A stretch of 64,000 bases of DNA from an uncultured virus (IMG/VR IMGVR_UViG_3300027969_000088) (taxonomy: Duplodnaviria > Heunggongvirae > Uroviricota > Caudoviricetes), in the IMG/VR virus record IMGVR_UViG_3300027969_000088. The stretch is one strand, 5' to 3'. The translations under genes and the position numbers were made by a program. Positions 28,301 to 64,000 of this stretch are shown here, piece after piece. Within the stretch, counting starts at the first letter, position 1; every line of letters starts with the position of its first letter. Below the pieces are notes generated by a model. It made no database searches. It was not told the DNA's origin and worked only from the letters and a program-made list of their open reading frames with translations.

Positions 28301-31300
28301 TCTACCTTTAGAAACATACGCCACAAAATCAGAAATGGCTTTAGCAATTTTATCTATGGTAGACAAATCTAATTTCTTTCCGTCTCTAGACATAAGAGCT
28401 GCCAATTCTACTAAAAACTCTTCACCTTTTTGATTATCTCTATATTCCTCAACTAAACTATTTAAGTTTGCTAAATTCTTTTCGCCTACTTGAGATGCAA
28501 GTACATTTTGTAAACTTTCTTTCATTCTATTAAATAATTCTGGATTTTGTCCTAAACTATTTAATAGAAGTACGTGTGAAACTTCGTGACCAATAGTTGT
28601 AGAATTTGCAGTATCCATATTAATTTGAATTTGTGCTTGAAACTTGCCCGTTTTCTCATTAAATGATATAGTTATGTTTCCATTTCTATTTTTCTTTGTA
28701 TCCAAACTAGTCATCGTTTCATTAAAATCATTAGTATTTAATAAAACAATGTTAACACCCGGAGTTGCTTCGTCTAGTACTCCTTGTAATCTTTTAGCAT
28801 CATCTAATATTACATCTGCATTTTGTTGTCCAGCAGCCCTTGCATTATCAGCAATTAAATTTAATTTTTCTTCATCTTTAACTATCGCACCTGTTTTACT
28901 TGCCTTTGTACTTAATCCTGTTACAATCTGAGGCCCAGAAACAACCTTAGTATCGTTCTCTGTCATTTGTTTTTTGAATTCCTCAAGACCTTTAGTTATT
29001 TCTTGGTTTTGAGTTTCAACTTTAATTTTACCATCTAGTAAATCATTTGCAAATTTTTCATCATTCAATGAAGCAATTAAATCAGTATCATCTACAATGA
29101 TGGATTGTTTATTATCAAAAGTAATTTTGGTATAATTTAAATTCTTTCCGTTTGGAATATCTGACATTTTTTTATCCAAACTTTTAATTTGAGAATCGAT
29201 AGCATTTTTTAAATTCTCATCGGTTTGAGCATCAGATGCTTTTTGTAATTTAGCCTTTTTTGAAGCCAATGCCAAGTAATACTTTTGATGATCTGGATTT
29301 TCTATTATTTCTTTAGCAGCAGGAAAAGTTTTAATTACTTCATCAAATGCTTTTCTCATATCCGCTAATTCATTAGCATCAATTTGACCTGTGCGATATA
29401 GCATTTCTGGAATAAAACCAACTCCTTTTTCTCCTATAATTTGCATAGCATCACTAACCATTTGACTTAGTCCGCTATCTTTTAATTTATTAAGTACACG
29501 ATTCTTTGCTATCTCTACTTGCTTTTCTCTATATGTTTCCATCATTGCACTACCACCACCTAAAACCATTACAGTTGGGGTAATGTTAATCATAGTAGAC
29601 ATACCATTTTTACTAGTCCAATCCCAAAAACCATCTGGGTTTTCAGTAGTATATTTATACTCTAAGTAACTTTGTGGTAATTCTTGAGCTCCTTCTGTTA
29701 ATAATTCAAAAGTCGTACCTGCACCAAACTTTTTAGCTATCCCTCCTATTCCTACTCCTTTTCCTAATTTACCAAGGAAACCTTTTGTAAAAGGTAACAT
29801 TTCTGCTACATATGTAGGAGCAAGTAATAATTGAACTCTTAAGCTTTCAGCAGCAGCGTTTTCAGCATCTGCAACAGATCCTGTTCTTTTAAAAGCATTT
29901 TTATAATTCTGACCAGTTTGATCCCAAGTATCTTGAGCAAAACCTATTGAACCACCTACATATGCACTACCACCTAAAAGTGTTGCAGCCATTGCTGGTG
30001 CATAATTAACAGTTTGCATAGCAAGATTTTGTACAACATTTTTTAACGCTGCTGTACTTAATAATCCTTCTACTTCTAAAACTTTATCAAATGGTGAAAT
30101 ATGAACTTCGCTCTTTTTTTGTACTAATTGTAAATGTTTTAATAAACCAGTTAGTGGATTATTTTCATATCCTACAGCAGCACTAATAGATTGTATTGCA
30201 TTTTCAAAATTATCAGCAGCTCTTCCTTGAATAATATCTACTATTCTCCACCCTAGGTTTGAACTATTGCGTTCTTCATCTATTGCAAAGTCATCGTATG
30301 CATCACGATAAGCATCTCTATATTTACGATACGCTGCTGTTGTTACTCTTGCTCCTTCTTCGTTTGCGTCATGAGCAACACCATATTTTTTTTGTAGTTT
30401 TTCAAAGTCTTTTTCAGATTGACCATCAAGTTGAATTTGATATTGAGTATATTTTTCTTCTGCTGCCTTTTTTAAATCGTTTTTAAGTTTTTCGTTTTTG
30501 TCGTTTTCTTCTTTTACAAAATTTACATACTTTGCATATTCAGCTGCATTTTGTTCTGGCGTTATATTAGGAGTTTGAGAAAATGACAAATATGTTTGAT
30601 AAGAAAGATTAACACTTTGTTTAGATGCCTCAGCAGCTTTTTTCATTGTTTGTTCAAAGTCATTTGCTAAACTTAAACTATATGAATTTAAAACTTTATT
30701 TTTATCAAACACTAATTGCTTTATGTCTTTTTCAAAATCTAAATTTGCCCTTGATATATCTTCAGCAAAAATATTTTTATCATTTACTTTTTTCTCAACT
30801 ATATTTTCAATTAAATTTTCTTCTGCTCTTTGTGACAATAAACGAATCATACGAGGTTTAATAATAGCTATAACATCTTCTTTGCTCATATCTAAGCGTT
30901 TCAATGTTTCATCTTTAATAAAGCCCATAGGAGCATTTAAATATTTATCTACTTGGTCTTCTATATAAATAGGATTGATTTTTGGATTGTTAGCATCATC
31001 TAGCATTACTAATCCATAATCTCCAGCTAATTGTCTGTTTGGATTTAATCCTTTAGAACTTGTTTTAGTTATTTTTCCAACATTATTAATACTTTCTGTT
31101 GTAATTGTTGTAAGTGCTGGATTATCATAGAAATTAACTGGCAAATTAAAATTAGAACTTTTTAAAATTTTATTAATCTCTGGAGTGATTATTTGGTCAA
31201 ATTGATTTCCTGCAATATTTAAATCTCCTTCGACATCAAATCTTCTATCAGAAGAAGTAGCAATACTTAAATCTTGGTACGCTGAATAATTTCTTACGTA

Positions 31301-32083
31301 ACTTTCTAATAAATTTTGACTTTGTTCAACTGGCTTAGGTTTGTTTAACTCGGTTAAACTTTCAGTTAATGTAAACTCTTTAAAAGGTGCTCCTTTTTGA
31401 ATTGGGGCAAAATTAATTGCTTGAGTACCTTCGCCTTTTGGTTTTATCTCAATGTTGTTATTGTTAATATTAACATTGAATTTTTTATTTGCTGTTTTTA
31501 CTATGGCATCTAAATCTTCTTGAGCATTAGGGTCAGATTTAAATTGTTTATATAATTGTACAAAATTATCTGTTTTATCCTTTAGTAAATTTAAATTTAC
31601 ATTAGGCTGAGCTAATAAATTTTGTATCTCTCCATATAAGGTTTGATACTGATTCTTCATAGAACCAGTATATGGCATTTGTCCTACAGACTTTATAATA
31701 CCATTTGTCGGGGTAGGTTTTGGTATTGATGGACCAGTAGAATTTTCAAATCCTACACTCATCAAATTATTGTTTTCTTGTTGACTTACATTTCCAGCGT
31801 TTTCTGGTAAATTCGCTTGGGTTTGGTCCACCACATTTTCAGTCTGTCCACCCGAAAGAGATTGAAAAGAAGAACTTTCTTCTGCGAGGTTTTGAATAAT
31901 CGGTTGGTCTTTTTTTTTTAAATATTCTGAGGCCGATTTCACTCCGAATAAATCTTCAAGTTGTTTATCTGCCTCTGGGGCACTAGTAATAAACTCTTGA
32001 AAATCTTCTTTGTTGTTAAAGTACTGACCGAAATCAGGTTTTTGGCTTAACTCGCCATACAGTTCTTCAAAATTTTCTGCCAT
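22319..32083 (-). CDS. giant virion cargo / polyvalent protein (zincin protease, ART-like, SAM-methyltransferase, kinase-like domains)
   Basis: HEVSH at aa ~1166 with downstream EEF; VYHGG...LYVASD...A..FA (ART-like); VLDYGAGLG...YDAVVSLNVLNV (MTase); GMESKV...DDIHEKN...IFDP (kinase-like). Confidence 0.85.
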   Translation of the reverse strand: MAENFEELYGELSQKPDFGQYFNNKEDFQEFITSAPEADKQLEDLFGVKSASEYLKKKDQPIIQNLAEESSSFQSLSGGQTENVVDQTQANLPENAGNVSQQENNNLMSVGFENSTGPSIPKPTPTNGIIKSVGQMPYTGSMKNQYQTLYGEIQNLLAQPNVNLNLLKDKTDNFVQLYKQFKSDPNAQEDLDAIVKTANKKFNVNINNNNIEIKPKGEGTQAINFAPIQKGAPFKEFTLTESLTELNKPKPVEQSQNLLESYVRNYSAYQDLSIATSSDRRFDVEGDLNIAGNQFDQIITPEINKILKSSNFNLPVNFYDNPALTTITTESINNVGKITKTSSKGLNPNRQLAGDYGLVMLDDANNPKINPIYIEDQVDKYLNAPMGFIKDETLKRLDMSKEDVIAIIKPRMIRLLSQRAEENLIENIVEKKVNDKNIFAEDISRANLDFEKDIKQLVFDKNKVLNSYSLSLANDFEQTMKKAAEASKQSVNLSYQTYLSFSQTPNITPEQNAAEYAKYVNFVKEENDKNEKLKNDLKKAAEEKYTQYQIQLDGQSEKDFEKLQKKYGVAHDANEEGARVTTAAYRKYRDAYRDAYDDFAIDEERNSSNLGWRIVDIIQGRAADNFENAIQSISAAVGYENNPLTGLLKHLQLVQKKSEVHISPFDKVLEVEGLLSTAALKNVVQNLAMQTVNYAPAMAATLLGGSAYVGGSIGFAQDTWDQTGQNYKNAFKRTGSVADAENAAAESLRVQLLLAPTYVAEMLPFTKGFLGKLGKGVGIGGIAKKFGAGTTFELLTEGAQELPQSYLEYKYTTENPDGFWDWTSKNGMSTMINITPTVMVLGGGSAMMETYREKQVEIAKNRVLNKLKDSGLSQMVSDAMQIIGEKGVGFIPEMLYRTGQIDANELADMRKAFDEVIKTFPAAKEIIENPDHQKYYLALASKKAKLQKASDAQTDENLKNAIDSQIKSLDKKMSDIPNGKNLNYTKITFDNKQSIIVDDTDLIASLNDEKFANDLLDGKIKVETQNQEITKGLEEFKKQMTENDTKVVSGPQIVTGLSTKASKTGAIVKDEEKLNLIADNARAAGQQNADVILDDAKRLQGVLDEATPGVNIVLLNTNDFNETMTSLDTKKNRNGNITISFNEKTGKFQAQIQINMDTANSTTIGHEVSHVLLLNSLGQNPELFNRMKESLQNVLASQVGEKNLANLNSLVEEYRDNQKGEEFLVELAALMSRDGKKLDLSTIDKIAKAISDFVAYVSKGRVQIFNSINNRKDFIEYMNDLSDTLASGQVTGKLKTNRQTEKTNKGSKETKAKGKITNKAQNDFNLNETIPVYHGGNFDNEGNNLYVASDRRQAKEFANMNYGKVSKFFINPIEMASEDLVRKTINDLGLKPREEGWTTDELGIHELLDPRFETSINEKDVEALIEKLKSQGYTGIAFKDEDILQENKIGVDNFLIFNKDSLFDSEDKVTKELKTNKLRDNFGSSVTLNDLLNKKPRIDNTINKGQIAAEKSSGTTQRANTVASYNKVANIIADVKGDVLDYGAGLGLGVDVLGSKLGRTIDSYEPNTERWQGKEKPTFTASDQINKKYDAVVSLNVLNVVPKDVRDAIVQDIYDKLNEGGKAVISTRKWAGDIQPTKGGKPGLESKSYKIESTGAYQKGFDGNELLEYIQDRLGPSAVVEKNNTFGAIGVTITKPVSTTTIINKGQLKNTLLIDENGNERQLGTLAEQQLSPQANKYSIGNVGKEAFNELGRFSKEFNTGTRASEQTIREQENHLEDWAKKNGIWINNVENLFPAPEYEIKQGMESKVWLGEGCKYVFKNTIANLYKRGFDYDFYRFAAHNLMFSNTAYEIVGFSRSDLNGKNQLSFVTKQPALSISFREYSSFSLSDMQELAKEITKQSGFEAKVFSKNGAHHVTITQKGLIVDDIHEKNAAEDADGETKIFDPYITIKDINDPDSFFAKHLKPIIDGYKNKGQLNYSNIGSEYHRAMMQSNNNKISSYMALINKGYTPKHIKEQIGLANFDENSFKQAQAKIAMETMTKVHDVFFDRQKYIKQQITNNLGQLGLIYEDLIADGMEHNGVMVNFSPLEIFKAVTDMDYMSNAELIDIFGAEYRETVKNALDANKEFPTDFMEDLEQDVKNLKVEQTAADVSNVLRQTGIGLVDSAVTMDLFLDYLATNGFDQIAIELTNAVKKFSQDRNLVDKTLDWADQVRSGKVGDNLYNPESIVYAFQVSSQLFSQAGRILQMARSFSEKNILSVLERAIENNGVVLTEKQKETLNSLANDYKTSQQRNKKALEELHTDWSDNAFDTYWASEKAIGDATIRLAQFLDARKPIFWNERITSGGSRALLGISTTVLSLVANVENNLWTTNYAARGIQKLRDSVGRGIKGNTLSFSNWKMARQLTSDRIHYTQQNNFKYGALNTSKGLNRYYDNLAQVNFFKDPAWAFNFMNVMIRKTTGKSLSEMTMEEQADALDLTLTKLKDGTIELRDGKDYTLARSLAWSFGLGPVSAVVGGNASMLLASAGPATSEFVGRVMAYGGDIAFGQMAAQRAMIDYFQNIEGTNYQGGVFDNMIKDAKGNLDKNAIRSLSTILYNMPELYETFEKEGLKRTLLADNLISGGISTIRGSLRKGIKNAYIANRANTSGTGIFSEAKRQFTALGISKNLLQILDAGLWTLMPFTKVPVNFLGSAIAKTVPHIASAKYIFSEGYYQYKYFQFHSSDKWGKGIPKLNSERKRLQYEKDKIELFAAKRQTTHDAAQMATSFAIYGFAMSAVKCGAVMASGQEPEKEKNLKNINLRGGIYNATLHYEYLAEQAKNAAKTGLNFFGGDYKTRGTDYFIARRGGFALPGDVILNTNNAGFVGYAMNLYGSTHNANRKAYQDSMTELVDDAKNGIGFMFQNTLSNGIETLPMFQGLARIGQLLSDFKDPEASKGAWENFASGTLSTSMAVFFPSFYSFMYKGNAQMVQNSNEIFSEREGDTWPAVFGRTITKTVQKLNRNISFNESTRNEFFKEAIGPFGEDLSTRVTIADPDGDYSAVAYLQAIFDPFAIHDHTTPVLLRNKEKQIYLESSKLYSGLIDFALMYEQMSGKNYEWQWNKKTRPIDQIIANPLKNDFQMLEKTTIDGYDSENVPKFIGYSLPNDLYRQELRLRGEFMRTSLRSYGDEIIDIKAKIKTNIEDGDVEGAKNKIITLFEQFQKTQKAANDSYMKEYYTQRQKKYLIIMKERGLITPDMMVKLKRVGIADENGLIP

Positions 32084-53249: not shown

Positions 53250-53326
53250 TAGTCAGGTGGATTAATATGGTAAATCATTCAATGGGAAACTGTTGAAAGA
53301 TACAGGTTCGAATCCTGTCCGACTAC
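53250..53326 (+). ncRNA. tRNA-like RNA 1, anticodon arm replaced by a GAAA-tetraloop hairpin
   Basis: Acceptor TAGTC../..GACTA; D arm GATT-AATATGGTA-AATC; TTCAATGG-GAAA-CTGTTGAA; T arm ACAGG-TTCGAAT-CCTGT. Confidence 0.75.
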
Positions 53327-53760: not shown

Positions 53761-54384
53761 ATGATTGGAATTTATAAAATAGTATCTCCAATAGGTAGAG
53801 TATATGTAGGACAATCTACAAATATAGAAAAAAGATGGAATCACTATAGATCACTAGACTGTAAGGACCAACAAAAAATATATAATTCTTTTGTTAAGTA
53901 CGGGGTTTGTAGTCATATTTTTTTAATAATTGAAGAGTGTGATGTTAGCGATTTGAACGAAAGAGAAAGATATTGGCAAGAATATTACGATGTTGTAAAA
54001 AAAGGATTAAATTGCAAAATGGTTTTTACAAATGAAAAATCTGGTTTTTTATGCGAAGAAACAAAGAAAAAAATAAGCAAAGCAAATAAAGGAAGATCTA
54101 ATAGAAAGAATTATAACCATTCAGAAGAAACAAAGAGAAAAATAAGTGAAGCCAATAAAGGAAAAAAAGCAACTGGTTTTTTAGGAAATCACTCAGAAGA
54201 AACAAAAAGAAAAATAAGTGAAGCCAATAAAGGAAGAATTGTTTCTGACGAACACAAATTAAAATTATCATTAGCAGCTATTGGAAGGCCAAGCAAGTTA
54301 AAAGGTAGAATTTTTACAGAAGAAGAAAGAAAAACAATGTATTCAACAAGGAAAAAAATAAAAAATATATGCAAGCTCAATTAA
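53761..54384 (+). CDS. GIY-YIG homing endonuclease with NUMOD3 repeats
   Basis: MIGIYKI...VYVGQS...R...ERE; repeated HSEETKRKISEANKG. Confidence 0.92.
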   Translation: MIGIYKIVSPIGRVYVGQSTNIEKRWNHYRSLDCKDQQKIYNSFVKYGVCSHIFLIIEECDVSDLNERERYWQEYYDVVKKGLNCKMVFTNEKSGFLCEETKKKISKANKGRSNRKNYNHSEETKRKISEANKGKKATGFLGNHSEETKRKISEANKGRIVSDEHKLKLSLAAIGRPSKLKGRIFTEEERKTMYSTRKKIKNICKLN

Positions 54385-54654: not shown

Positions 54655-55130
54655 CAATAAAGTGCATTATAAGGAACAAAACAATACATTTAAGGAACTT
54701 TTATGACACATTAAGGAAGATTAGTGCTTTTTAAGGCACTTTTCTTTGTTCACGAAATCGTGTACATAAATGAATAGTGAACAATAAGGTCTCAGACTTA
54801 TATTGAGTATTTATAAGGTAATGACCTAATATCTGGTATTGCGATATGCGATATTATATCTCCTAGGGTATATATAAAAAGCCTTGACATAAAAATATCT
54901 CATATTGCGATATTATACCTTTTAGGGTATAGATAATTTACTCCAGTATGTTTTTATTACCGATAGGGTATAATTGTGCAATATATCATACATTAACTCG
55001 GTTTTTTACCGATAAGGAGTAATATATCATACGTACGATGATTACGTACACTTCGTAACGAACTATTCGTAATGATAAAAAAGTTTAGTTTTACTTTAGT
55101 CGGTCTCGAAATTTACCGAGGTGAGACCAA
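54655..55130. repeat. array of diverse short palindromic operator-like sites
   Basis: TAAGGAAC/TAAGGCAC family, GTTCACGA-AA-TCGTGTAC, ATATC..TATTGCGATAT, ..AGGGTATA, TTACCGATA.GG, TACGTAC, GGTCTC..GAGACC. Confidence 0.7.
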
Positions 55131-55447
55131 AAAATTTTTAGTGGGGGTTACAAAACTTTACAAATAAATACACGGGGGTTAAAAACAAGCCCCCCCCTTC
55201 TGTTAAAACTTGTGCGAGGTGTGAAGGTGATACGTTCCGAAAAGTCAGGTTGCCACCCAAAAAAAATATCCCCCCCTTTTTCCCTATCTCGAAGCAAATA
55301 ACTGATTGATTATCAATAACTTAACAGCCTAAATTGAATTAATTTGAACACAAAAAACGTATTCGCACTACTTAACTGATTGATATGCAATGAATTAAAA
55401 TGTTCACACTCGTTCGATTGTGTACACTATCAATAAGTTAACTGCTC

Positions 55448-55852
55448 TATTTAGAATTATTCTAAACAAAGCTCTTGCGTACACACGCACACACACACGC
55501 CTACACGTGCGCACATACACGCACCCTGGCGCACACACACGCACGTTATAGGGATTTTTTACCACTTCAGCAAATTTATTTGCTATTTATAATTATTCTA
55601 AATTACTTTGAATATTTTTTTATTTGAATTTTTTTGCCTATGCGCATACACACGCACTCGCTGGTGCACACACGTACGCACGTTAACGGTTATTTTACTC
55701 ACAATTGCAAATTTATTTTTTGCTATTTGATATCGATTATTTATTTTATTTGTTTAAACGAACAAAAATATTTTTAAAATTTATTTAATTGATTATCAAT
55801 AACTTATAATTTATTTTACATTTTTTTTTAAATTCATAATGATTCTAAATAA
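55448..55852. promoter_or_regulatory. three Fur/PerR-type 7-1-7 boxes
   Basis: TTAGAAT-T-ATTCTAA, TTATAAT-T-ATTCTAA and TCATAAT-G-ATTCTAA within 55448-55469, 55584-55605 and 55831-55852. Confidence 0.55.
55476..55730. repeat. two imperfect direct repeats with alternating purine-pyrimidine (CA/CG) tracts
   Basis: GCGTACACACGCACACACACACGC...GCACGTTA and GCGCATACACACGCAC...GCACGTTA, each followed by GCAAATTTATTT..GCTATTT. Confidence 0.75.
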
Positions 55853-56028
55853 CATAATTATTTTATTGATTATCAGTAACTTACATTTTACATTTTTTTG
55901 CTAACTCATTGATAATCAACTATGTTTACCTATCGTTTCAAAAAATTGCCTTGTAACTCATTGACTATCAATACCCTTTTGTTATAACTAATTGTTTATC
56001 AGTAACTTACGATTAAATTTTTGTGTTG

Positions 56029-56036
56029 TATGTTTG
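56029..56036 (+). promoter_or_regulatory. Bacteroidota -7 promoter element (early promoter)
   Basis: TATGTTTG matches TAnnTTTG. Confidence 0.6.
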
Positions 56037-56040
56037 CATC

Positions 56041-56497
56041 GTTGGTTTAACACACTAACAACTTCAAATCACGTTTGCATAAAGTGTTTACACTACACAA
56101 CGTGAGATTTATAAAAGCAGTAATAAAAACTGTTTTTTGTGAGATGTGGACTCAAAGAAAAAATACCATTGGTGACGTAAAATCTATGTGCAAACGTAGT
56201 CCTACCTAAGTGGACGGGCATCCCTCTTGTGACCAAGTCAAAAATGAGGGTGTATAATCGTGTAGCGTCCGAGTAATCGGGGAACGCCCGTGTTATATGC
56301 TTTCTTGAGGGGACTATAAGAAAACAGAGAGAAAACTGTTTTTGTGTAAGTGGCGTATAACTACGTCCTATTAGTCTATGATGGTTCAACCACTTCAATG
56401 TGAGAAACCTAAAAAATAATGTGCCGTAAAAACTACCTTGTTATACATAAAGTTTGACATTGTATGTAGGTAACCTCGTGAGGTTAACAAGGTAGCA
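56041..56497 (+). ncRNA. candidate large structured RNA / long 5' leader
   Basis: Long-range stems ACGTTTGCATA/TGTGCAAACGT, ACGGGC/GCCCGT, GTTATATGC/GCGTATAAC and CTACCTTGTTA/TAACAAGGTAG; GNRA loop CCGA-GTAA-TCGG; no + strand ORF. Confidence 0.65.
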
Positions 56498-56510
56498 AAC
56501 TTTTAAACAT

Positions 56511-56900
56511 ATGAAAAACACACAAATCAAAATCGAAAACAACGGGACGTTCATCAAGTTTGACCTTGACACTAACAACACTAAAGACAACAACAAAGTA
56601 AGGCGAGCTTTAGTGTATCGTTTCTTTGACTATTACAACACTATGCGAGTACTGGGGGCAAAAGGTTTCAAGGGGAACGAGCCTTTTGTAGTCACTATTT
56701 TAATTGACGGGCAGTTACAATTTACGTCTGCAAATTTAACGACTCAAGTACAAACAAGGCTTAAGTTAATTAATAACCCAAAAGGTAGGGAACGTTTCGA
56801 CTTCGCATTGGATACTATTATCGCAATGGCACAACGTTTCGAGAGTACAAATGTTGATGCAATTATCAAAGATGTTGCGACTCGTTTGTTAGAAGCATAA
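56511..56900 (+). CDS. first early gene, hypothetical
   Basis: 129-aa ATG ORF followed by a terminator. Confidence 0.8.
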   Translation: MKNTQIKIENNGTFIKFDLDTNNTKDNNKVRRALVYRFFDYYNTMRVLGAKGFKGNEPFVVTILIDGQLQFTSANLTTQVQTRLKLINNPKGRERFDFALDTIIAMAQRFESTNVDAIIKDVATRLLEA

Positions 56901-56920
56901 TTTATCCTTACTATCTATTC

Positions 56921-56952
56921 ACCCCTATGGTAATTATCATAGGGGTTTTTTT
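56921..56952 (+). terminator. intrinsic terminator
   Basis: ACCCCTATG-GTAATTAT-CATAGGGGT followed by a T run. Confidence 0.85.
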
Positions 56953-57023
56953 ATGTCTATAAATATGGACAGTCAAAAACAATCATCAACACTCACCAGG
57001 CTTAGTCTGTATTAGCAAGTCTA

Positions 57024-57075
57024 TGTAAATTCACAAATCGGTGTGCCGTACGTTCGAGTCGTACATTTACAGCCA
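57024..57075 (+). ncRNA. minimal tRNA mimic (acceptor stem + T arm + GCCA end)
   Basis: TGTAAAT/ATTTACA 7-bp stem; GTACG-TTCGAGT-CGTAC; ends G-CCA. Confidence 0.65.
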
Positions 57076-57099
57076 AAACAAAAATCTAAACATACAATT

Positions 57100-57285
57100 A
57101 TGAGTCTAAAAAATCAAAGTCTAATTATGACCTTTTTAGGTCTTGCACTATCAGTCTTATTGATAGCCGTGTCTTATCACTTTTCCTTACCAAATTGGGT
57201 AGAATACTTAGGGGCATTTTGCTTTTTTGTATTTGTAGTCGTGCTGTGTTTTGAAATGTATATCGATGATACTTATAAAAAATAA
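57100..57285 (+). CDS. small two-TM membrane protein
   Basis: ATG at 57100, two hydrophobic segments. Confidence 0.6.
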   Translation: MSLKNQSLIMTFLGLALSVLLIAVSYHFSLPNWVEYLGAFCFFVFVVVLCFEMYIDDTYKK

Positions 57286-57289
57286 AACT

Positions 57290-57586
57290 ATGAAACAAAT
57301 CACACAACAAGCAGTCGGAGCTTTTATGAATGCACAACCATTCAAAAGAGACAACACACAAGTAAAAGTATTACCAAACGTAACAATCTTGTCACTATTC
57401 GGTAATGATATTGCTTACCTATACAACGATCCAGAACGCACTTTAAGTATCACCAATTGTGGTTGGTTCTCCAAGACAACAAAAGAACGTCTTAATGGTA
57501 TACCGAATGTAAACATCTCTCAAAAGAAAGGCGAGTGGTATTTAAATGGTGTACTATGGAATGGTGGAGTAACTGATATAAAATAA
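57290..57586 (+). CDS. early hypothetical protein
   Basis: LFGNDIA...GWFSKTTKERLNG...QKKGEWY, a common early phage family. Confidence 0.75.
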   Translation: MKQITQQAVGAFMNAQPFKRDNTQVKVLPNVTILSLFGNDIAYLYNDPERTLSITNCGWFSKTTKERLNGIPNVNISQKKGEWYLNGVLWNGGVTDIK

Positions 57587-57593
57587 AAAAACT

Positions 57594-58295
57594 ATGAATA
57601 TAAAAACTTTATTAGCCGATGGCAAGACCAATGCCAAAACCAAAAAGAACGTGCGTCCTACGGGTATGCTCTATCTACACCCCTCTATAGTAGAGGGTAA
57701 AGATATGTGTCCCTTTGCTACTGTCAATTGTCGAGCTGCTTGTCTTAATACAGCCGGTATGGGTGCTTGGAGCAATACACAATTAGCACGTCTCAATAAG
57801 ACTAAGTACTACGTATCAGATAGACAAAAGTTCTTGGCTCAACTCTCTATAGAGATTAATAAGATGGCAAGAAAGTATTCATCTGAGACCCTTGCCATAC
57901 GTCTCAATGGTACAAGCGACCAACCTTTAGTAGAGCAAATTGTCAAGGACTTTACAATTGCCGACAACGTAGTGTTCTATGACTACACAAAGAATCACAA
58001 AAAGGCTGGAGAACGTACCTTTCTAAGTGGTCACAAGTATGTAGTCACATATAGCCTACACGAAAATAATATCGAGTCGTTTCAGTATATGCTCGACAAC
58101 AAACTATGTAATGGTGCTGTAGTATTCAACCTCAAACCTAATCAGCCTATGATTACTGAATGGCGTGGTTTCCCCGTGGTAGATGGTGACGAGCGTGACG
58201 ATCTTATGCTCGACATACCCAAGGGTACTATCTTAGGACTCAGAGCCAAAGGTAAGGCAAGAAAAGATACTTCGGGCTTTGTTATTCATCTATAA
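57594..58295 (+). CDS. gp88-like protein (CPxAxxxCxxxC, radical-SAM-like fold)
   Basis: MCPFATVNCRAACLN, IRLNGTSD, FYDYTK, DGDERD, LRAKG. Confidence 0.8.
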   Translation: MNIKTLLADGKTNAKTKKNVRPTGMLYLHPSIVEGKDMCPFATVNCRAACLNTAGMGAWSNTQLARLNKTKYYVSDRQKFLAQLSIEINKMARKYSSETLAIRLNGTSDQPLVEQIVKDFTIADNVVFYDYTKNHKKAGERTFLSGHKYVVTYSLHENNIESFQYMLDNKLCNGAVVFNLKPNQPMITEWRGFPVVDGDERDDLMLDIPKGTILGLRAKGKARKDTSGFVIHL

Positions 58296-58314
58296 CCCCC
58301 AAAACACTCATCAT

Positions 58315-58497
58315 ATGACTACATCAATTAAATTTGGCGATTTCGTGAAAATGATTTCGCCTACAGACATTAATCAAGTCTACATCGTTATAGGTGTAGA
58401 CTCACAACAAGCAACTATAGAAGAACTCTATACCGATGCTATGTACCCACAAACACACAATGTACAACTAAACCAAATCTACAAATATGACTTTTAA
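58315..58497 (+). CDS. hypothetical protein
   Basis: ATG at 58315, KOW/SH3-like IKFGDFVK. Confidence 0.55.
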   Translation: MTTSIKFGDFVKMISPTDINQVYIVIGVDSQQATIEELYTDAMYPQTHNVQLNQIYKYDF

Positions 58498-58663
58498 CGA
58501 ATTTACAACGTGGTGCAAAGGCAAGATTGTTATGCACCCAGACAAGAAACAAGACATCATCGAATTCCATTCATTAGCACATAGCGAAATCGCTGATGGT
58601 GGTAGTGAACAACACGAAATCGACTTAGCAATGAACGACATAAACGACTTAATCAATGGATAA
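58487..58663 (+). CDS. 58-aa hypothetical protein
   Basis: MTFNEFTTWCK...GGSEQHEIDLAMNDINDLING; below the ORF-track cutoff. Confidence 0.6.
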   Translation: MTFNEFTTWCKGKIVMHPDKKQDIIEFHSLAHSEIADGGSEQHEIDLAMNDINDLING

Positions 58664-58831
58664 CACTTTATTAAACGCAAAACAATGGTTCGAGTCTATG
58701 GGCTACGAAGTTAATATATTTGTAGGTTCACTATACCTACAATTAGAAAGTTGCTCAGTAGAATTATCTCAACGTGAGATTGAAGGCAGAGCACAACAAT
58801 GGATTGATGAATTAGATAGAGAAGATTAAAT

Positions 58832-59485
58832 ATGAGACCCTTAAATATATTAGTTGCTTGTGAGTACTCAGGTGCAGTACGCCAAGCGTTTAGAAAGTTA
58901 GGACACAATGCAATATCTTGTGACCTCTTGGAAGCCGAAGACAATAGCCCGTATCATCACACGGGCGATGTCTTTCAAATTATCAATGCCAATCCTATGA
59001 ATGGTCAGCCGTGGGACTTAATGATAGCACACCCACCTTGTACGGATCTGGCAGTAAGTGGTAGCCGTTGGTTTCCCGAAAAGATAGCAGATGGTAGGCA
59101 AGAACGAGCACTACAATTTGTACGTGACCTTATGGATGCACCCATAGAGCATATCCTTATAGAGAATCCTATTAGTGTTATCTCCTCTAAGATTAGAAAG
59201 CCTAATCAGATTATTCAACCGTGGCAGTTCGGAGACCCATTCCAAAAGTCTACTTGTCTATGGCTAAAGAATCTACCATTGTTAGCACACACTAAGATAG
59301 TAGACAAAGGAGAATTCAAAGAATGGATTGACAAGAAAACCGGTAAGACTAAACGCCAAGCAACGTGGTACTATGAAGCTTTCAAACGTGGCAAAGAAGA
59401 CAGATGGAAAGATCGATCACGTACCTTTCAAGGTATAGCCGATGCCATAGCCGACCAATATTCTAATTATATTTTAAATAAATAG
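58832..59485 (+). CDS. C5-cytosine DNA methyltransferase-like protein
   Basis: LVACEYSG, AHPPCT, IENP, RSRTFQGIADAIADQ. Confidence 0.85.
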   Translation: MRPLNILVACEYSGAVRQAFRKLGHNAISCDLLEAEDNSPYHHTGDVFQIINANPMNGQPWDLMIAHPPCTDLAVSGSRWFPEKIADGRQERALQFVRDLMDAPIEHILIENPISVISSKIRKPNQIIQPWQFGDPFQKSTCLWLKNLPLLAHTKIVDKGEFKEWIDKKTGKTKRQATWYYEAFKRGKEDRWKDRSRTFQGIADAIADQYSNYILNK

Positions 59486-59517
59486 TAAATTATAATAAAT
59501 TATAATATATTTGAACA

Positions 59518-59976
59518 ATGAAACAACAGACTAAATTCAAAGTAGCAGTAAGAAAATACCCTATAGAGTATTCAAGAGAAGGTACTATAGGTCTGATGCA
59601 AGAAAAATGGGAACGATTACGTGACGATAATGGTATCATTCAATATCACTACGCTTACCGACCAGAAGAAGGACAAGTATTCTACACTATACAACCTACA
59701 CTAAAGAAATGTCGTGCACAAAGGAATGAAGTTTTATTGGAAAGATTATTAAAGTGTGGTTATGATATAAACAAAGAACATATAATGTTAGCGTTCGGAG
59801 AATCTATATGGTGGTATCCACTTAAAACGGGTGGTAGATTCATATACGATTGGAACGAGGCAATTGGTATTGCTATGGCTAATGGTGTTACTGTAAGATT
59901 AAAGTTAGGCGATTTAGAATGGGATAACTTAGACGATCCTAATGCTACTCGCTATTGTATGAGAACAAAAAAATAA
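59518..59976 (+). CDS. hypothetical protein
   Basis: 152-aa ORF with TATATTTG 4 nt upstream. Confidence 0.7.
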   Translation: MKQQTKFKVAVRKYPIEYSREGTIGLMQEKWERLRDDNGIIQYHYAYRPEEGQVFYTIQPTLKKCRAQRNEVLLERLLKCGYDINKEHIMLAFGESIWWYPLKTGGRFIYDWNEAIGIAMANGVTVRLKLGDLEWDNLDDPNATRYCMRTKK

Positions 59977-59984
59977 ATATAGAT

Positions 59985-60254
59985 ATGACAAAATTATTAG
60001 TAAAAGACGCAATCGAAATCATTAAGAGTAAGAGATTTTTCTCTGCTGTGTTCACAAAGAAAGATGGTACTACACGCTACATCTATGGTAGGTATGGTGT
60101 GAAGAAACATCTGAAACCCAATGCTAAACCCCAAGCCTATAACCCATCAGAACGTGGTTACTTGACTATATGGGATATGCAGAAAAAAGAATATAGATTA
60201 ATAAACACCCAAACACTCACCGTTATAAACCACAAAAAAATATATGTTAAATAA
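59985..60254 (+). CDS. WYL-like SH3 beta-barrel protein
   Basis: FFSAVFTKKDGTTR...IWDMQKKEYRLIN. Confidence 0.75.
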   Translation: MTKLLVKDAIEIIKSKRFFSAVFTKKDGTTRYIYGRYGVKKHLKPNAKPQAYNPSERGYLTIWDMQKKEYRLINTQTLTVINHKKIYVK

Positions 60255-60495
60255 ATTAATAAACTTTAAAATTGAAGTTGCTTACGCTCTTAAAGAGTAT
60301 CCGGAAATAACTGAAGAAATCAATAATATACACGACTATTGTATGTTGTTTATGACTGACGGCTTAGTAATATTTAGCAACGAATTAGATATTGCTCTCA
60401 ATGATTTAGAAGAGTTAATAGAAAGAAACAAAGAAGTCTCCAGTCATACTGATTGGAGTACTGAGTACGAAACAATTTACGAAAGAGACTTATAA
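60244..60495 (+). CDS. acidic hypothetical protein
   Basis: 83-aa ORF within the early operon. Confidence 0.65.
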   Translation: MLNKLINFKIEVAYALKEYPEITEEINNIHDYCMLFMTDGLVIFSNELDIALNDLEELIERNKEVSSHTDWSTEYETIYERDL

Positions 60496-60497
60496 TT

Positions 60498-60716
60498 ATG
60501 CAAAAAACATTTAGAATCGGAGAATCTGCAATCGGTGGTATTGTAGTAGTTAAGACACGTCCTAAAAACGTGTATGAAGTTACTTGCTTAGACTGGTATA
60601 CAAAAGAAAAAGTTCAATGGAGATTTGTATACGGACTCGAAGAACTTAAAGATTATTTAACGGACATTAGCACATACTATTGGGCTGATAAAATAACAAA
60701 ACACTTTAAAAAATGA
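60498..60716 (+). CDS. hypothetical protein
   Basis: KTFRIGESAIGGIV...YYWADKI. Confidence 0.7.
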   Translation: MQKTFRIGESAIGGIVVVKTRPKNVYEVTCLDWYTKEKVQWRFVYGLEELKDYLTDISTYYWADKITKHFKK

Positions 60717-60886
60717 AATATACTATAGAACAAATCGATGCAATGCTGTACGCATTAGACGATGCAATTTATGAATCAGAATTAAAACTGAACATTGAAG
60801 ACGATAACGAGTTGAGAGATGCTCACATTGAACAATTAAGACAATTAGATAACATATTTAACTTATTAAACGATTTAAAATTATGA
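60713..60886 (+). CDS. 57-aa acidic hypothetical protein
   Basis: ATGA-coupled at both ends; below the ORF-track cutoff. Confidence 0.6.
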   Translation: MKYTIEQIDAMLYALDDAIYESELKLNIEDDNELRDAHIEQLRQLDNIFNLLNDLKL

Positions 60887-61230
60887 AACACACAATTATA
60901 ACAGAAGTAGAAAATTCCGATATAAACATTGTAATGTTTATCGAAGACCACGCATTGGTAGGTATTAATTATTGGTTTGGACTCGGAGACCCACTCGGTC
61001 CAGAACTAAGTGACTTTTTTGGTAAACCTGATCGAATCTTATTCGATTATGTTAAAAGGTATTACAACAATGCAGAATATGACGTTGATTACTTTTTTCC
61101 ATCGCCAGATTTTGACCATCAAGTAAAAAGATTAGATGGTATTATGTCTGCTATGCATCAAGTAAACTTTATCGAGGAGCAGATAAGCGAATTGCAATTA
61201 ACAATTAAAAACTTAATGGAGAACTTATAA
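60883..61230 (+). CDS. hypothetical protein
   Basis: 115-aa ORF. Confidence 0.7.
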   Translation: MKHTIITEVENSDINIVMFIEDHALVGINYWFGLGDPLGPELSDFFGKPDRILFDYVKRYYNNAEYDVDYFFPSPDFDHQVKRLDGIMSAMHQVNFIEEQISELQLTIKNLMENL

Positions 61231-61232
61231 AT

Positions 61233-61592
61233 ATGGGACGTTATTATTCAGGGGACATCGAAGGCAAGTTTTGGTTTGCTGTCCAATCATCAGGTTGTGC
61301 TGACCGTTTTGGTAGCATTGGTTATGAACCTTCTTGCATTGAATACCATTTTGACTTCGAACATTTGTCGGGAGTAAAAGAAGAGATTCAAAATATAGAA
61401 GAAAAGTTAGGAGACAAGAAACAAAAGTTAGATGACTTCTTCGCAGAAGTAATTAGTTACTCAGACAAATCGATTGCAGATTTAGGAGTTACTAAAGATG
61501 ACTTATCAGAGTATGCTGATCTACTGATGGGTTATAAAATTAGAGATTGTATTGAAGACACGGGAGCGTGTAGTTTTACTGCTGAATTATAA
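61233..61592 (+). CDS. hypothetical protein (MGRYYSGDIEGKFWF family)
   Basis: Recognisable phage N-terminus and C-terminal CSFTAEL. Confidence 0.75.
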   Translation: MGRYYSGDIEGKFWFAVQSSGCADRFGSIGYEPSCIEYHFDFEHLSGVKEEIQNIEEKLGDKKQKLDDFFAEVISYSDKSIADLGVTKDDLSEYADLLMGYKIRDCIEDTGACSFTAEL

Positions 61593-61614
61593 TAAACAAT
61601 TTAAAAATAAACAT

Positions 61615-61860
61615 ATGAGACAAGTAACAATTAAAGTACAACGTACTTACACCAAAGAAGCACAGGTAACTATTGAGTTACCTGACAATGTAGTATTAGA
61701 CTATGTAGATGATTATCTACTTGCAAATCAAGGATTGTATGAGAATAGAATTCAATATGCAATGGATAAGCAAGAACATTCTTTTGACGATGAAACAATA
61801 CGTTATGATGTTACCGAAGAAGTAACAGAACGTAGACATATCTGGGGAGGTACATTATGA
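61615..61860 (+). CDS. hypothetical protein
   Basis: ATG at 61615; ends WGGTL. Confidence 0.65.
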   Translation: MRQVTIKVQRTYTKEAQVTIELPDNVVLDYVDDYLLANQGLYENRIQYAMDKQEHSFDDETIRYDVTEEVTERRHIWGGTL

Positions 61861-62414
61861 AAATAGAAACTTATTGCCCACTATTCCCCGGCTTTTATGG
61901 TACAATATTCGAGCCGAACGAAGAGAATGAAATCGAATATCACAACGATGAGAACGATACTGAATTATCCTATGATGATTTTGAATTTGACTATACTGAC
62001 TACCAAGAAAGAGTTGCCCGTGCATTTGTAAATTCTTTTGAGGTAGAGTTTCAAGATGTTATGCCAGTGGAGATTAACTATCAAAGCATATCAAGTCCTC
62101 AGTATTATAATTTCTCCAATGATTCAATTAACATTGAGGTTGACCTTGACTTTGATAAATTTATGCAGATTGTAAATGATAACAAGGACAATCTCAAAAA
62201 ATACATTCGTGATAACTACACATCTCGTGATGGCTTTAATTCATTCCATTCTAATGATATCGAAGATTGGTGCGACCCAGAATATGTATTGGAGAATTTA
62301 TCTCATCGTGTTGGTGCTTTAATGGAAGCTTTGCTCCTAACAATTGTTAATCAAGATGATATCTACCATTGGGCAGAAAGTGAAATGTTCTACCTTAATT
62401 ATAAAGTAAAATGA
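61857..62414 (+). CDS. highly acidic early protein
   Basis: FPGFYGT...SPQYYNFSND...YTSRDGFNSF; D/E-rich. Confidence 0.75.
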   Translation: MKIETYCPLFPGFYGTIFEPNEENEIEYHNDENDTELSYDDFEFDYTDYQERVARAFVNSFEVEFQDVMPVEINYQSISSPQYYNFSNDSINIEVDLDFDKFMQIVNDNKDNLKKYIRDNYTSRDGFNSFHSNDIEDWCDPEYVLENLSHRVGALMEALLLTIVNQDDIYHWAESEMFYLNYKVK

Positions 62415-62680
62415 AAATAGAAGAAATAACAGCAAAACTAAACGAGAAAGGATATGTATATCCCGATTGTTTACGATGGACTACGGGAGATATCAATCTC
62501 CGGTTGTCAGCAATGGATAGACAAGATGACTTAAAGTTTATGACTGAAGACGATAAGATGATGTTATTAGAAAATTTCTTTGATGCATATGCTGATGACA
62601 TTATGGAATTCATTAACCAAAAATTAGAACAAGACCTTGAGTCTTATACGGATTACCAAGTAACAAAACAACCATTTTAA
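62411..62680 (+). CDS. acidic hypothetical protein
   Basis: 89-aa ORF. Confidence 0.7.
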   Translation: MKIEEITAKLNEKGYVYPDCLRWTTGDINLRLSAMDRQDDLKFMTEDDKMMLLENFFDAYADDIMEFINQKLEQDLESYTDYQVTKQPF

Positions 62681-62682
62681 TT

Positions 62683-63309
62683 ATGAAAGTATTAGAATTA
62701 TTCGCAGGTTCACGCAGTATCGGTAAGGTATGCGAAGAGATGGAGTACAGAGTATTCTCATCGGATTGGACACAATTTGACGGCATAGACTATGCTGTAG
62801 ACATTAATCAGTTTGATACGGAGAAAGTGCCATTCATTCCAGATGTTATATGGGCATCTCCTCCTTGTACAACATTCTCTGTTGCTTCTATAGGTAAACA
62901 TTGGCATCCAAATCGGAGACCCAAATCTAACGATGCATTGATAGGCTTAGAAATTCTTAAGTCTACTATCAATATTATCAATCAGTATAAGAAACTTAAC
63001 CCTAACCTTATATGGTACGTTGAGAATCCTCGTGGTATGATGCGCAAGATGGAGTTATGGAATGATTTATTTCACGTCCGTAATACTGTGACCTATTGTC
63101 AGTACGGAGACACACGAATGAAACCTACTGATATATGGACAAACAATTTCGATTGGACACCTCGCCCAGCGTGTAAGAATGGTATGCCTTGCCATGTATC
63201 TGCACCTCGTGGTAGCACTACTGGTACACAAGGTTTAAAAGGTAGTTACCTACGATCTCAAGTACCATATGAATTATGTAAGGAAATAATAAATGCTACA
63301 AAAATATGA
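62683..63309 (+). CDS. C5-cytosine DNA methyltransferase
   Basis: VLELFAGS, WASPPCTTFS, YVENPRG, YCQYGD..KPTDIW, RSQVPYELC. Confidence 0.9.
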   Translation: MKVLELFAGSRSIGKVCEEMEYRVFSSDWTQFDGIDYAVDINQFDTEKVPFIPDVIWASPPCTTFSVASIGKHWHPNRRPKSNDALIGLEILKSTINIINQYKKLNPNLIWYVENPRGMMRKMELWNDLFHVRNTVTYCQYGDTRMKPTDIWTNNFDWTPRPACKNGMPCHVSAPRGSTTGTQGLKGSYLRSQVPYELCKEIINATKI

Positions 63310-63683
63310 CAACTATAATTAATAAACTAAAAGACATGGGTTATATAGTATATAACCCTTACAACAATTCATTAGAGAGACCTCGATACATTGTACCTTT
63401 AAATGAATTTGACACAGAAGAAATTGATAAACTAACCGTGGAATTATATATCGATAGTTTAGAGTTAATCAAAAAAGAATTACCGGATGAATATGGCACG
63501 ATTAAAAACTTTAAGCAACATTTATTCTTTGACATAAATGCCGATGGTTCGTTTTATGAATGGACTTGTGATTTGGCTTATGAGTGTATAGATGATGCGA
63601 TTGCTGTTGCTCGTGAATTAAACATCGAAGAAATATGGGATTGTGACGATGGCACTAATATATATGTAGATGAAACAGATTGA
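63306..63683 (+). CDS. acidic hypothetical protein
   Basis: 125-aa ORF. Confidence 0.7.
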   Translation: MTTIINKLKDMGYIVYNPYNNSLERPRYIVPLNEFDTEEIDKLTVELYIDSLELIKKELPDEYGTIKNFKQHLFFDINADGSFYEWTCDLAYECIDDAIAVARELNIEEIWDCDDGTNIYVDETD

Positions 63684-63954
63684 TGCATTTGTACCAAAAG
63701 AAATTTATGATGACTTTGTTAAGAAACACAAAACACATAAAGGCGCATTAGATTATTTATCTATAGCATTAGAACATAGAATTACTGCACAAAGATATTT
63801 AATCAATCGTGATTTGATTACGCAAGTAAATCATATTAAAATTAATATACCAATCAAAGAACATTTAGTTCCTTATTTGAATGAATATTGTTTGATTAAA
63901 GGTATTACTAAACAAGAACTATTAGTTAAAATTATGTTAAAAAGAAGAGTATGA
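63670..63954 (+). CDS. hypothetical, possibly ribbon-helix-helix
   Basis: KINIPIKEHLVPYLNEYCLIKGITKQELL. Confidence 0.6.
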   Translation: MKQIDAFVPKEIYDDFVKKHKTHKGALDYLSIALEHRITAQRYLINRDLITQVNHIKINIPIKEHLVPYLNEYCLIKGITKQELLVKIMLKRRV

Positions 63955-64000
63955 AAGCAATAGGATACATTAGAGTAAGTACTGATATGCAAGCTGACAA
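63951..64000 (+). CDS. serine recombinase/resolvase, 5' end only (truncated by the window edge)
   Basis: MKAIGYIRVSTDMQAD contains the YxRVST catalytic serine motif. Confidence 0.8.
   Translation, partial: MKAIGYIRVSTDMQAD

Follow-up and report, generated by a model that had tools for sequence, protein, structure and literature searches.

A previously uncatalogued structured RNA family with tRNA-like modules at the head of a predicted phage early operon

Introduction

tRNA-like elements embedded in non-tRNA transcripts are cut by RNase P, as is the case for the C4 RNA of phages P1 and P7, for operon mRNAs and for the mascRNA of MALAT1, and in these known cases cleavage at the acceptor/T-arm mimic either separates an RNA from its leader or generates a 3' end. 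Large covarying structured RNAs without known function are rare, and phages host puzzling ones such as GOLLD and ROOL. One preprint describes GOLLD and ROOL as often encoded near tRNA islands, and GOLLD as sometimes carrying tRNAs in its linker (bioRxiv 10.1101/2024.12.08.627333). Here we analyse a structured leader RNA encoded on the + strand of an uncultured Caudoviricetes virus (IMG/VR record IMGVR_UViG_3300027969_000088), in a stretch of 64,000 nucleotides (nt) that is referred to below as the window; the leader fills the space between a promoter and the first open reading frame (ORF1) of a predicted early gene block.

A first-pass annotation of the window had proposed a large phage non-coding RNA or cis-acting leader of an unrecognised family, to be checked for covariation among homologues and against Rfam. 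Both checks bear the proposal out: the fold covaries in 11 sequences and no known Rfam 15 family matches the leader. The conclusion that this is a previously uncatalogued structured RNA family, heading a phage early operon and having an unexpected tRNA-like architecture, is strongly supported. Our reading of its role is more tentative: the leader may be an undescribed, modular non-coding early RNA whose tRNA-like handle serves as a processing signal for host tRNA-maturation enzymes. The system offers a defined promoter, a position at the start of the early transcript, a strict gene partner and a built-in tRNA-like module.

Results

A covarying fold between promoter and ORF1

The leader is about 390-490 nt long in the family, of which 140 positions form a conserved core. 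In the window it is flanked as follows.

56029..56036, + strand: promoter -7 box TATGTTTG, TAnnTTTG type, read from the sequence
56040..56497, + strand: whole structured leader RNA, about 458 nt (alignment A3, 11 sequences, RNAalifold)
56511..56900, + strand: ORF1, 129 amino acids (aa), with a homologue 3' of every leader copy

The TAnnTTTG element placed directly upstream by the first-pass annotation was confirmed, and an nATSTTTG -7 box could be aligned in 10/10 sequences that include the promoter region (AATATTG in L064). Boxes of this type we take to be the Bacteroidota sigma-A consensus, and transcription would start a few bases 3' of the box, at about 56040. Judging from its position behind a conserved promoter that heads a + strand gene block, the leader would be made first in infection.

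Eleven distinct leaders remained after deduplication (those of the window and of loci L056, L057, L058, L060, L062, L064, L067, L068, L069 and the 5'-truncated L070), which come from the window and 13 contigs of uncultured phage or metagenome origin. On the full alignment A3, RNAalifold predicted 68 pairs, 41 of them with compensatory changes. Covariance models of the core (R1, 140 positions, 35 pairs) and of the 3' junction (R2, 77 positions, 23 pairs) matched the window at 120.4 bits (E 4e-26) and 50.2 bits (E about 2e-10), respectively. In the R1 alignment, 97.7% of the 383 core cells were paired, compared with 83.2 +/- 1.2% in shuffles, and 19 of the 35 pairs showed changes on both sides, compared with 8.3 +/- 1.7 in shuffles; the corresponding values for the junction were 95.6% of 249 cells and 11 of 23 pairs. 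For both models, 0/500 shuffles reached either the paired percentage or the both-sides count, and sliding the 3' partners by 1-3 columns reduced pairing to 31.9-45.2% (core) and 31.7-37.0% (junction). The count of further pair types in the junction was equalled by 19/500 shuffles, and the T-type hairpin of the junction showed no column-wise covariation, with differently sized hairpins in the window and in L070. The shuffle controls are generous because the alignments were fitted to the models and the 11 sequences amount to about five subclades; more weight attaches to the slid controls and to the large number of distinct pair types. Taken together, the comparative data show a real, conserved RNA that folds as described, on the + strand.

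G-U pairs, which had been proposed to favour a + strand RNA over DNA palindromes, account for 32/383 core cells and 24/249 junction cells and would read as A-C mismatches on the opposite strand. The RNA was assigned to the + strand because of these pairs, the upstream promoter and the orientation of the downstream ORF. Folding energy alone is weak support and does not separate the strands: the + strand has a minimum free energy of -116.2 kcal/mol (z -2.38, with 1/100 shuffles as good), and the - strand fold has a z of -2.67 (2/100 shuffles as good). As had been noted in the first pass, no substantial + strand ORF is present, the longest within 56041-56497 having at most 44 aa, and no open frame on either strand was conserved across the 11 leaders. 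A 101-aa frame on the - strand (56093-56398) was rejected as coding, having no PHROG and no conservation.

No match to described RNA families

At gathering thresholds, Rfam 15 matched only a tRNA (53251-53325) in the window. When E values up to 10 were allowed for 55300-57200 and 56400-57110, nothing fell wholly inside 56041-56497, and the faint overlaps at its edges lay far from the gathering scores: Fwd6_3p_UTR (56101 to 55984 on the - strand, 20.3 vs 79 bits), bxd_3 (56421-56559, + strand, 20.1 vs 70 bits) and hveRNA (56412-56559, - strand, 17.3 vs 90 bits). Seven homologue loci gave only real tRNAs, and L064 2890-3500 gave nothing above 23 bits. Known Rfam 15 families, including GOLLD, ROOL, OLE, raiA, HEARO, group I/II introns, RNase P, transfer-messenger RNA (tmRNA) and riboswitches, were rejected as candidates in the absence of a match. 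ARAGORN searches of the window and of 12 loci called no gene in the leader or in any module. A full-text literature search found no description of the element, which is weak evidence of absence since most subscription journals lay outside the search.

A small family in uncultured phage contigs

All leader copies lie 5' of ORF1 homologues. ORF1 has 10 relatives at 47-100% identity in a large protein collection, and searches with an ORF1 alignment (A2) yielded 8 viral loci not found before and 8 from metagenomes, whose upstream regions align with the window leader. Searching 347 kb from 40 sources with R1 returned the 11 known copies only. One IMG/VR contig is 100% identical to the window; three loci (L001, L002 and L003), being the same phage at 100% identity, were uninformative, and the leader region is absent from the nearest record, G001. 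Among GenBank phages, blastn gave no match to 55300-57600, and 57000-64000 matched only short methyltransferase pieces. The 233-aa protein encoded at 57594-58292 led to 53 related loci, the closest being L004 (91% aa identity), and none of the 22 that were searched with R1 (L004-L025) carried the core.

Pattern scans of IMG/VR returned 16 stretches in a first round (8 family contigs and 8 chance matches) and 10 in a second (7 family contigs and 3 chance matches, the latter representing one gene of three related contigs). The same kind of scan over 185,579 prokaryote species genomes gave at least 120 stretches; among the 80 that were checked with R1 no credible match was found, the best being two at 17.5 bits (E 0.04), taken as chance. 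Since the R1, IMG/VR and prokaryote scans gave no others, the leader family is small and so far confined to uncultured phage contigs.

Anatomy of the 5' domain and core

The leader begins with a CA-rich spacer, short in the window and much longer in the homologues, and continues with a 5' domain, the core and a linker.

56069-56075/56099-56105, + strand: H1 hairpin TCACGTT/AACGTGA with conserved loop end UACACA (RNAalifold covariation)
56114-56136, + strand: variable hairpin
56146-56149/56166-56169, + strand: Hc hairpin GTGG/CCAT closing a conserved purine-rich loop (covarying in a per-sequence listing)
56186..56197, + strand: GNRA-capped mini hairpin ATGT-GCAA-ACGT, an insertion common to the window and L069 only
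56199-56202/56212-56215, + strand: H4 hairpin GTCC/GGAC with loop UACCUAAGU, covarying
56216..56414, + strand: conserved core H5-H10 (R1 model)
56222-56226/56307-56311, + strand: H5, enclosing H5a
56230-56233/56237-56240, + strand: H5a with invariant loop region GUGACCAAGUCAA (core model mapping)
56241..56306, + strand: insertion of about 60 nt inside H5, common to the window and L069 only (alignments A3 and A4)
56312-56316/56372-56376, + strand: H6 of the core three-way junction
56320-56327/56336-56343, + strand: H7 of the core three-way junction
56352-56357/56362-56367, + strand: H8 of the core three-way junction, GGCGTA/TACGTC, conserved
56383-56386/56406-56409, + strand: H9 (core model)
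56391-56393/56400-56402, + strand: H10 (core model)
56410..56432, + strand: A-rich single-stranded linker UAAAAAAUAAUGUGCCGUAAAAA (alignment A3 columns 452-476)

Covariation in the 5' domain is illustrated by H1 (alignment pairs 97-105/131-139), one pair of which is UA in five sequences and CG in five, and by H4 (GTCC/GGAC, CGAC/GTCG, TTAC/GTAA and CCC/GGG). The Hc helix occurs as GGGCA/TGCCC, GGGTA/TACCC, GGGAT/ATCCC, GAGGTA/TGCCTC or GTGG/CCAT, has at least 4 bp in 8/10 sequences (2 bp in L062, none in L060) and closes a loop that reads GKSGWASAACWA in 9 homologues. L069 carries the GNRA mini hairpin as ACGT-GAAA-ACGT. In the core, the H6/H7/H8 junction contains two copies of a GUGUAAGU-like sequence and the invariant loop AGAGAAAA. 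The insertion inside H5 resembles a degenerate partial duplicate of the sequence 3' of H5 and holds GAGGG (56246-56250), CCGA-GTAA-TCGG (56269-56280), GCCCGT (56286-56291) and GTTATATGC (56292-56300); L058, L060 and L070 have a 21-24-nt hairpin at its site.

The stems named in the first pass are all complementary in sequence, and about half of them are not the conserved ones. Its 11-bp CTACCTTGTTA/TAACAAGGTAG junction (56433-56443/56485-56495) is upheld by covariation together with the two inner hairpins. The CCCTC/GAGGG helix is conserved in kind, its homologous partner being the GAGGG at 56307-56311 rather than that at 56246-56250, an inner alternative that exists in the window and L069 within the insertion. 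The long-range stem 56071-56081/56187-56197 is not conserved, as its 5' strand lies in the covarying H1 and its 3' strand is the GNRA hairpin shared with L069, and GTTATATGC/GCGTATAAC (56292-56300/56353-56361) clashes with the conserved hairpin 56352-56357/56362-56367. These two stems may be alternative folds in the window phage, not part of the family structure. ACGGGC/GCCCGT and CCGA-GTAA-TCGG lie within or touch the insertion. A scan of all column pairs for tertiary contacts gave three candidates, each resting on one or two sequences or competing with a supported helix; none is claimed. In the first, 56167-56170 would pair with 56421-56424 (4 bp, one compensatory change only); in the other two the arm-B loop would contact either the H10 loop or the 3' strand of the T arm.

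A core with invariant nucleotides in its junctions and internal loops, placed in a 5' leader, also recalls a riboswitch or sensor that would bind a metabolite, an ion or a tRNA and control ORF1. We consider this highly improbable: no expression platform was found, there being no conserved terminator, none in the window between core and ATG, and no pairing that hides the start codon, which the consensus structure leaves unpaired; the 3' junction stands between core and ATG; nothing metabolic is annotated for ORF1; and the family is confined to one small phage clade.

tRNA-like modules before start codons

The leader ends in a three-way junction (module M1), and further modules of this kind lie around ORF1.

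56433..56495, + strand: 3' three-way junction, tRNA-like module M1 (R2 model)
56433-56443/56485-56495, + strand: M1 outer stem
56444-56449/56463-56468, + strand: M1 arm B with conserved loop UUUGAC
56472-56476/56481-56485, + strand: M1 second hairpin
56921..56954, + strand: intrinsic terminator after ORF1, present in 3/11 copies (window, L057, L058)
57024..57075, + strand: M2, a second tRNA-like module before ORF2 (acceptor/T-arm/CCA scan)

In the 10 homologues, M1 consists of a 9-bp outer stem, one unpaired base, a 9-bp arm with the conserved loop CCUUUGAC, two unpaired bases and a 5-bp hairpin (GUCUG-UCGWGU-CAGAC) placed flush against the outer stem's 3' strand. The next bases read GCCAA in all ten, with the CCA lying 10-20 nt ahead of the ATG of ORF1. 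The predicted geometry matches the acceptor/T-arm portion of a tRNA whose CCA is encoded. The T-type loops, 6-nt UCGWGU or UCACGU in 9 homologues, make this an approximate T arm only. M2 of the window comes closer to the tRNA form, with a 7-bp acceptor stem (TGTAAAT/ATTTACA), a T arm (GTACG-TTCGAGT-CGTAC, 57048-57064), a G, and CCA at 57073-57075; the ATG of ORF2 follows at 57100. M2 precedes ORF2 in the window, L057, L058 and L069, and R2 finds its copies weakly (E 0.019-0.069). After ORF1, the terminator is replaced in 6/11 copies by a mini tRNA-like element (GGCGA...GGGG-TTCGACT-CCCC...TCGCC-TT-CCA) whose T stem shows a compensatory change, and two copies have neither.

A strict acceptor/T-arm/CCA scan matched only + strand sites just 5' of start codons, namely M1 in 9/10 homologues, M2 in three sequences (window, L058, L069) and the post-ORF1 element in two (L062, L067). 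It gave no match on any - strand, and M2 was its sole match on both strands of the 64-kb window. A canonical T arm (5-bp stem, 7-nt UUCRANN loop closed by G-C, abutting the 3' strand of the acceptor stem) was found in all four M2 copies (window, L057, L058, L069), in the six post-ORF1 elements and in both modules of L004, and not in M1 of the window. Window M2 carries CCA, as does M1 of all 10 homologues; window M1 and L004 do not. The start codons 3' of the modules have no Shine-Dalgarno sequences. Neither tRNA nor tmRNA explains the modules: ARAGORN and Rfam found no four-arm cloverleaf in them, and a tmRNA was rejected given the negative ARAGORN result, an acceptor stem closed locally by strands about 60 nt apart, and no conserved short frame.

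The same type of junction occurs behind other leaders. L004 and L006 have long leaders (about 350 and 680 nt) of unrelated sequence, with no R1, R2 or Rfam match, and yet the same three-way junction lies about 20-25 nt before their ORF1. The junction arm of L004 is canonical (UUUAG-UUCGAGU-CUAAA), and a second such module follows its ORF1. Across these loci, the junction appears to be a module common to a wider phage group and the core to be specific to one ORF1 subfamily. Hairpin-rich regions lie before the ORF1 relatives at L004 3918-4921 and L006 about 1140-1819, and the two leaders may represent further undescribed leader RNA families.

The position of the modules could also suit an unprocessed cis-acting 5' untranslated region (UTR) that shields ORF1 mRNA from 5'-end-dependent decay or acts as a standby site or enhancer for Shine-Dalgarno-independent translation. 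An A-rich unpaired stretch follows the structure, whose end is always 10-25 nt from the ORF1 ATG, junction modules also stand directly before ORF2, and the mini element that replaces the terminator at the 3' end of ORF1 fits a stabilising end structure. A stabiliser or enhancer, however, needs no conserved core of about 300 nt with invariant loops, the spacing between CCA and ATG ranges over 2-26 nt, and the CCA and canonical T loops point to recognition by tRNA enzymes; a plain UTR is accordingly a possible but unlikely explanation.

The first-pass annotation had further suggested antitermination at the 56921 terminator. A nascent leader of the put type would modify host RNA polymerase for readthrough at 56921 and beyond, and the window on its own would suit this, with the leader directly behind the early promoter, a strong terminator after ORF1 and + strand genes beyond it. 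As a conserved function the suggestion is not supported, and a put-type processive antiterminator was rejected: the terminator is found in 3/11 copies, six have the tRNA-like element and two have neither, and the leader RNA is several times larger than put RNAs. We judge this explanation very unlikely.

With several CCA-bearing tRNA-like modules at the very start of the early transcript and real tRNA genes nearby in these phages, the modules might instead act as decoys or recruiters for host factors, whether RNase P, the CCA-adding enzyme, modification enzymes or tRNA-directed defence nucleases, which they would titrate or draw in, with the core as a scaffold. Most modules have no anticodon and D arms, however, and a decoy seems very improbable to us.

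A separate motif, AUCUGAG-N-CCCAA, is conserved right after the ORF1 stop codon, ahead of the terminator or tRNA-like element, in L056, L057, L058, L060, L062, L064, L067, L068, L069, L070 and L004 (5416-5435). The window has only a degenerate version, AUCUAUUCACCCC (56915-56927), and a similar UGUGAGAC lies in the 5' domain of the leader. The motif could be a nuclease or protein site.

ORF1 and a swappable early cassette

The identity of ORF1 to that of the window is 46-100% in the fetched core-bearing loci, 33-37% in L006 and 30% in L004. It belongs to no PHROG or Pfam family, and no RNA-binding family was found in these collections. The AlphaFold2 model (predicted local distance difference test score, pLDDT, 82.5) gave a best Foldseek E of 0.19 (tombusvirus p19) and best VIA Z scores of 5.5, 5.1 and 5.0; the weak fold resemblances include nucleic-acid binders, namely p19 (Z 5.1) and Y-family polymerase little fingers (Z 4.7).

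When the window (55073-57594) was compared with L004 (3548-6001), the block of leader, ORF1, ORF2 and ORF3 was found to be replaced by unrelated sequence between flanks that are 87% identical in nt and 91% in aa. The blastn match of L004 to the window stops at 55073, and the promoter and start region (GTATGTTTGCA..GTTGGTTTAA) is kept in L004. The promoter-to-ORF3 block looks like a swappable early cassette, and co-inheritance with block exchange would fit an RNA-protein pair or a fast-evolving host-takeover cassette.

One form of such a pair would be an ORF1 protein that binds the core of its own leader, for translational autoregulation or as a ribonucleoprotein. The core occurs only 5' of ORF1 homologues in all 11 R1 matches (347 kb, 40 sources), the more distant ORF1 relatives of L006 and L004 carry other leaders, leader and ORF1 were exchanged together in L004 despite its conserved flanks, and the resemblance to p19 and the little fingers would suit a nucleic-acid binder. 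We nevertheless regard this explanation as doubtful, as the co-occurrence may reflect linkage within a swappable cassette, and the fold matches lie below trust (Z < 8, Foldseek E at least 0.19) with no RNA-binding Pfam or PHROG family behind them.

Genome setting

The - strand of the window carries a structural block (4.5-48 kb) that encodes a portal protein, virion proteins and a 3254-aa polyvalent protein (22322-32083, - strand), which has Pfam Kinase-PolyVal and Methyltransf_23 domains and no PHROG at 1e-5; the + strand blocks encode primase/helicase, DNA polymerase, a RecE-like exonuclease and methyltransferases. Between 54594 and 56510 the sole ORF of at least 60 aa is the 101-aa - strand frame, and repeats are abundant throughout. 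The structured leader occupies the final 460 bases of this gap, after which a + strand gene run extends to the end of the window.

55299..56010, + strand: 26-nt palindrome-bearing repeat TAACTNATTGATTATCAATAACTTA, six copies (repeat search, family D1)

The final copy of this repeat overlaps the -35 region of the early promoter, and the palindrome inside it is TTGATTATCAA. Comparable repeats lie 5' of the promoter in L057, L058, L062, L067 and L069; they are candidate operators or iterons. Low-complexity tracts, consisting of C and G runs or of the CACACGCACAC type, are present in the long non-coding region of the window (55170-55280 and 55477-55690), with similar tracts in relatives (L004 3925-4050, L006 530-925); a genome end, a packaging site or an origin may lie there. 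Farther upstream lies a tRNA gene (53250-53326, + strand; Rfam tRNA 41.1 bits) to which ARAGORN assigns the label 'tRNA-???' and an anticodon of four bases (gaaa), and which could encode a frameshift-suppressor-like or otherwise unusual phage tRNA. It adjoins a gene for a GIY-YIG homing endonuclease (53761-54384, + strand; PHROG 314, E 4e-30).

Discussion

The reading that we tentatively prefer, an early RNA whose tRNA-like handle is a processing signal, starts from the modules: they are taken as sites for tRNA enzymes because they mimic an acceptor stem and T arm with CCA, interchange with a terminator and lie before start codons that have no Shine-Dalgarno sequence. The transcript would begin on the + strand at the conserved promoter (56029-56036) and run through four parts, namely the CA-rich spacer, the 5' domain (H1, variable hairpin, Hc and H4), the core (H5-H10), and the A-rich linker with the junction. 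Host tRNA-maturation enzymes would recognise the modules, with RNase P cutting at the 5' side of the acceptor stem and 3' trimming proceeding to the CCA. Were the early transcript cut at the modules, the structured core would become an independent, stable RNA, and ORF1 would retain a short A-rich leader that has no structure and suits translation independent of a Shine-Dalgarno sequence.

Several observations weigh against this reading. Cleavage at the modules is purely putative. The Rfam tRNA and tmRNA models left the modules unrecognised at E values up to 10, and M1 is not a canonical minihelix, having a 9-bp stem, a 5-bp arm and a 6-nt loop. Window M1 has neither the T-type loop (its loop is CGUG) nor CCA (GCAAAC), and the L004 modules are also without CCA (ACAAAC, GCAAAT), losses that would be unexpected if CCA were essential. 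The variable CCA-to-ATG spacing counts here as well. The core offers no clue to its partner, and the structural matches of ORF1 are too weak to name its predicted fold. With 11 related sequences, the shuffle controls, in contrast to the slid ones, can overstate the support for the RNA fold itself.

A bolder extension, which we consider speculative and doubtful, is a class of 'tRNA-handled' ornate phage RNAs. Host enzymes would free an RNA of about 350-400 nt whose terminal tRNA-like domain bears CCA; through it the RNA would engage the translation or tRNA machinery of the host as infection begins, with leader and ORF1 forming a swappable host-takeover cassette. The handle might be charged or undergo CCA repair, sequester RNase P or EF-Tu, or dock on the ribosome.

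Should the modules prove to be processing signals, tRNA punctuation, a principle known from mitochondrial transcripts, would here serve a phage in organising an early operon in bacteria, and this may tie to Shine-Dalgarno-independent translation in Bacteroidota-type hosts. The region is also a candidate site of host-takeover or counter-defence innovation, because relatives with 91% identical flanks carry unrelated leaders and yet the same terminal junction.

Among described systems, the leader RNA is like GOLLD and ROOL in belonging to the large, ornate, phage-encoded RNAs that are defined by covariation and have no known function, and in its tie to tRNA, here a tRNA-like module and a tRNA gene 2.7 kb upstream. 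It differs from them in matching no Rfam model, in its smaller size (about 390-490 nt) and in being the 5' leader of a specific early ORF behind a promoter, in 13 contigs besides the window. With HK022 put the leader shares the nature of a cis-acting structured RNA right behind an early phage promoter, and differs in size and architecture and in a downstream terminator that is unconserved (3/11). The modules resemble tRNAs, the tRNA-like domain of tmRNA and viral 3' tRNA-like structures in combining an acceptor-type stem with a hairpin set against its 3' strand, and M2 and the post-ORF1 modules approach tRNA further, with canonical 5-bp T arms, UUCGAGU, UUCAAGU or UUCGACU loops, a discriminator base and CCA. 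In contrast to tRNA and tmRNA, they have no cloverleaf, anticodon or D arm and no tag reading frame, and unlike the viral structures they lie upstream of start codons, not at the 3' end of an RNA. C4 RNA and mascRNA share with the leader an acceptor/T-arm mimic with CCA embedded in a longer transcript; the putative released RNA is far larger than theirs and has another fold, and its modules recur like punctuation around the first early ORFs.

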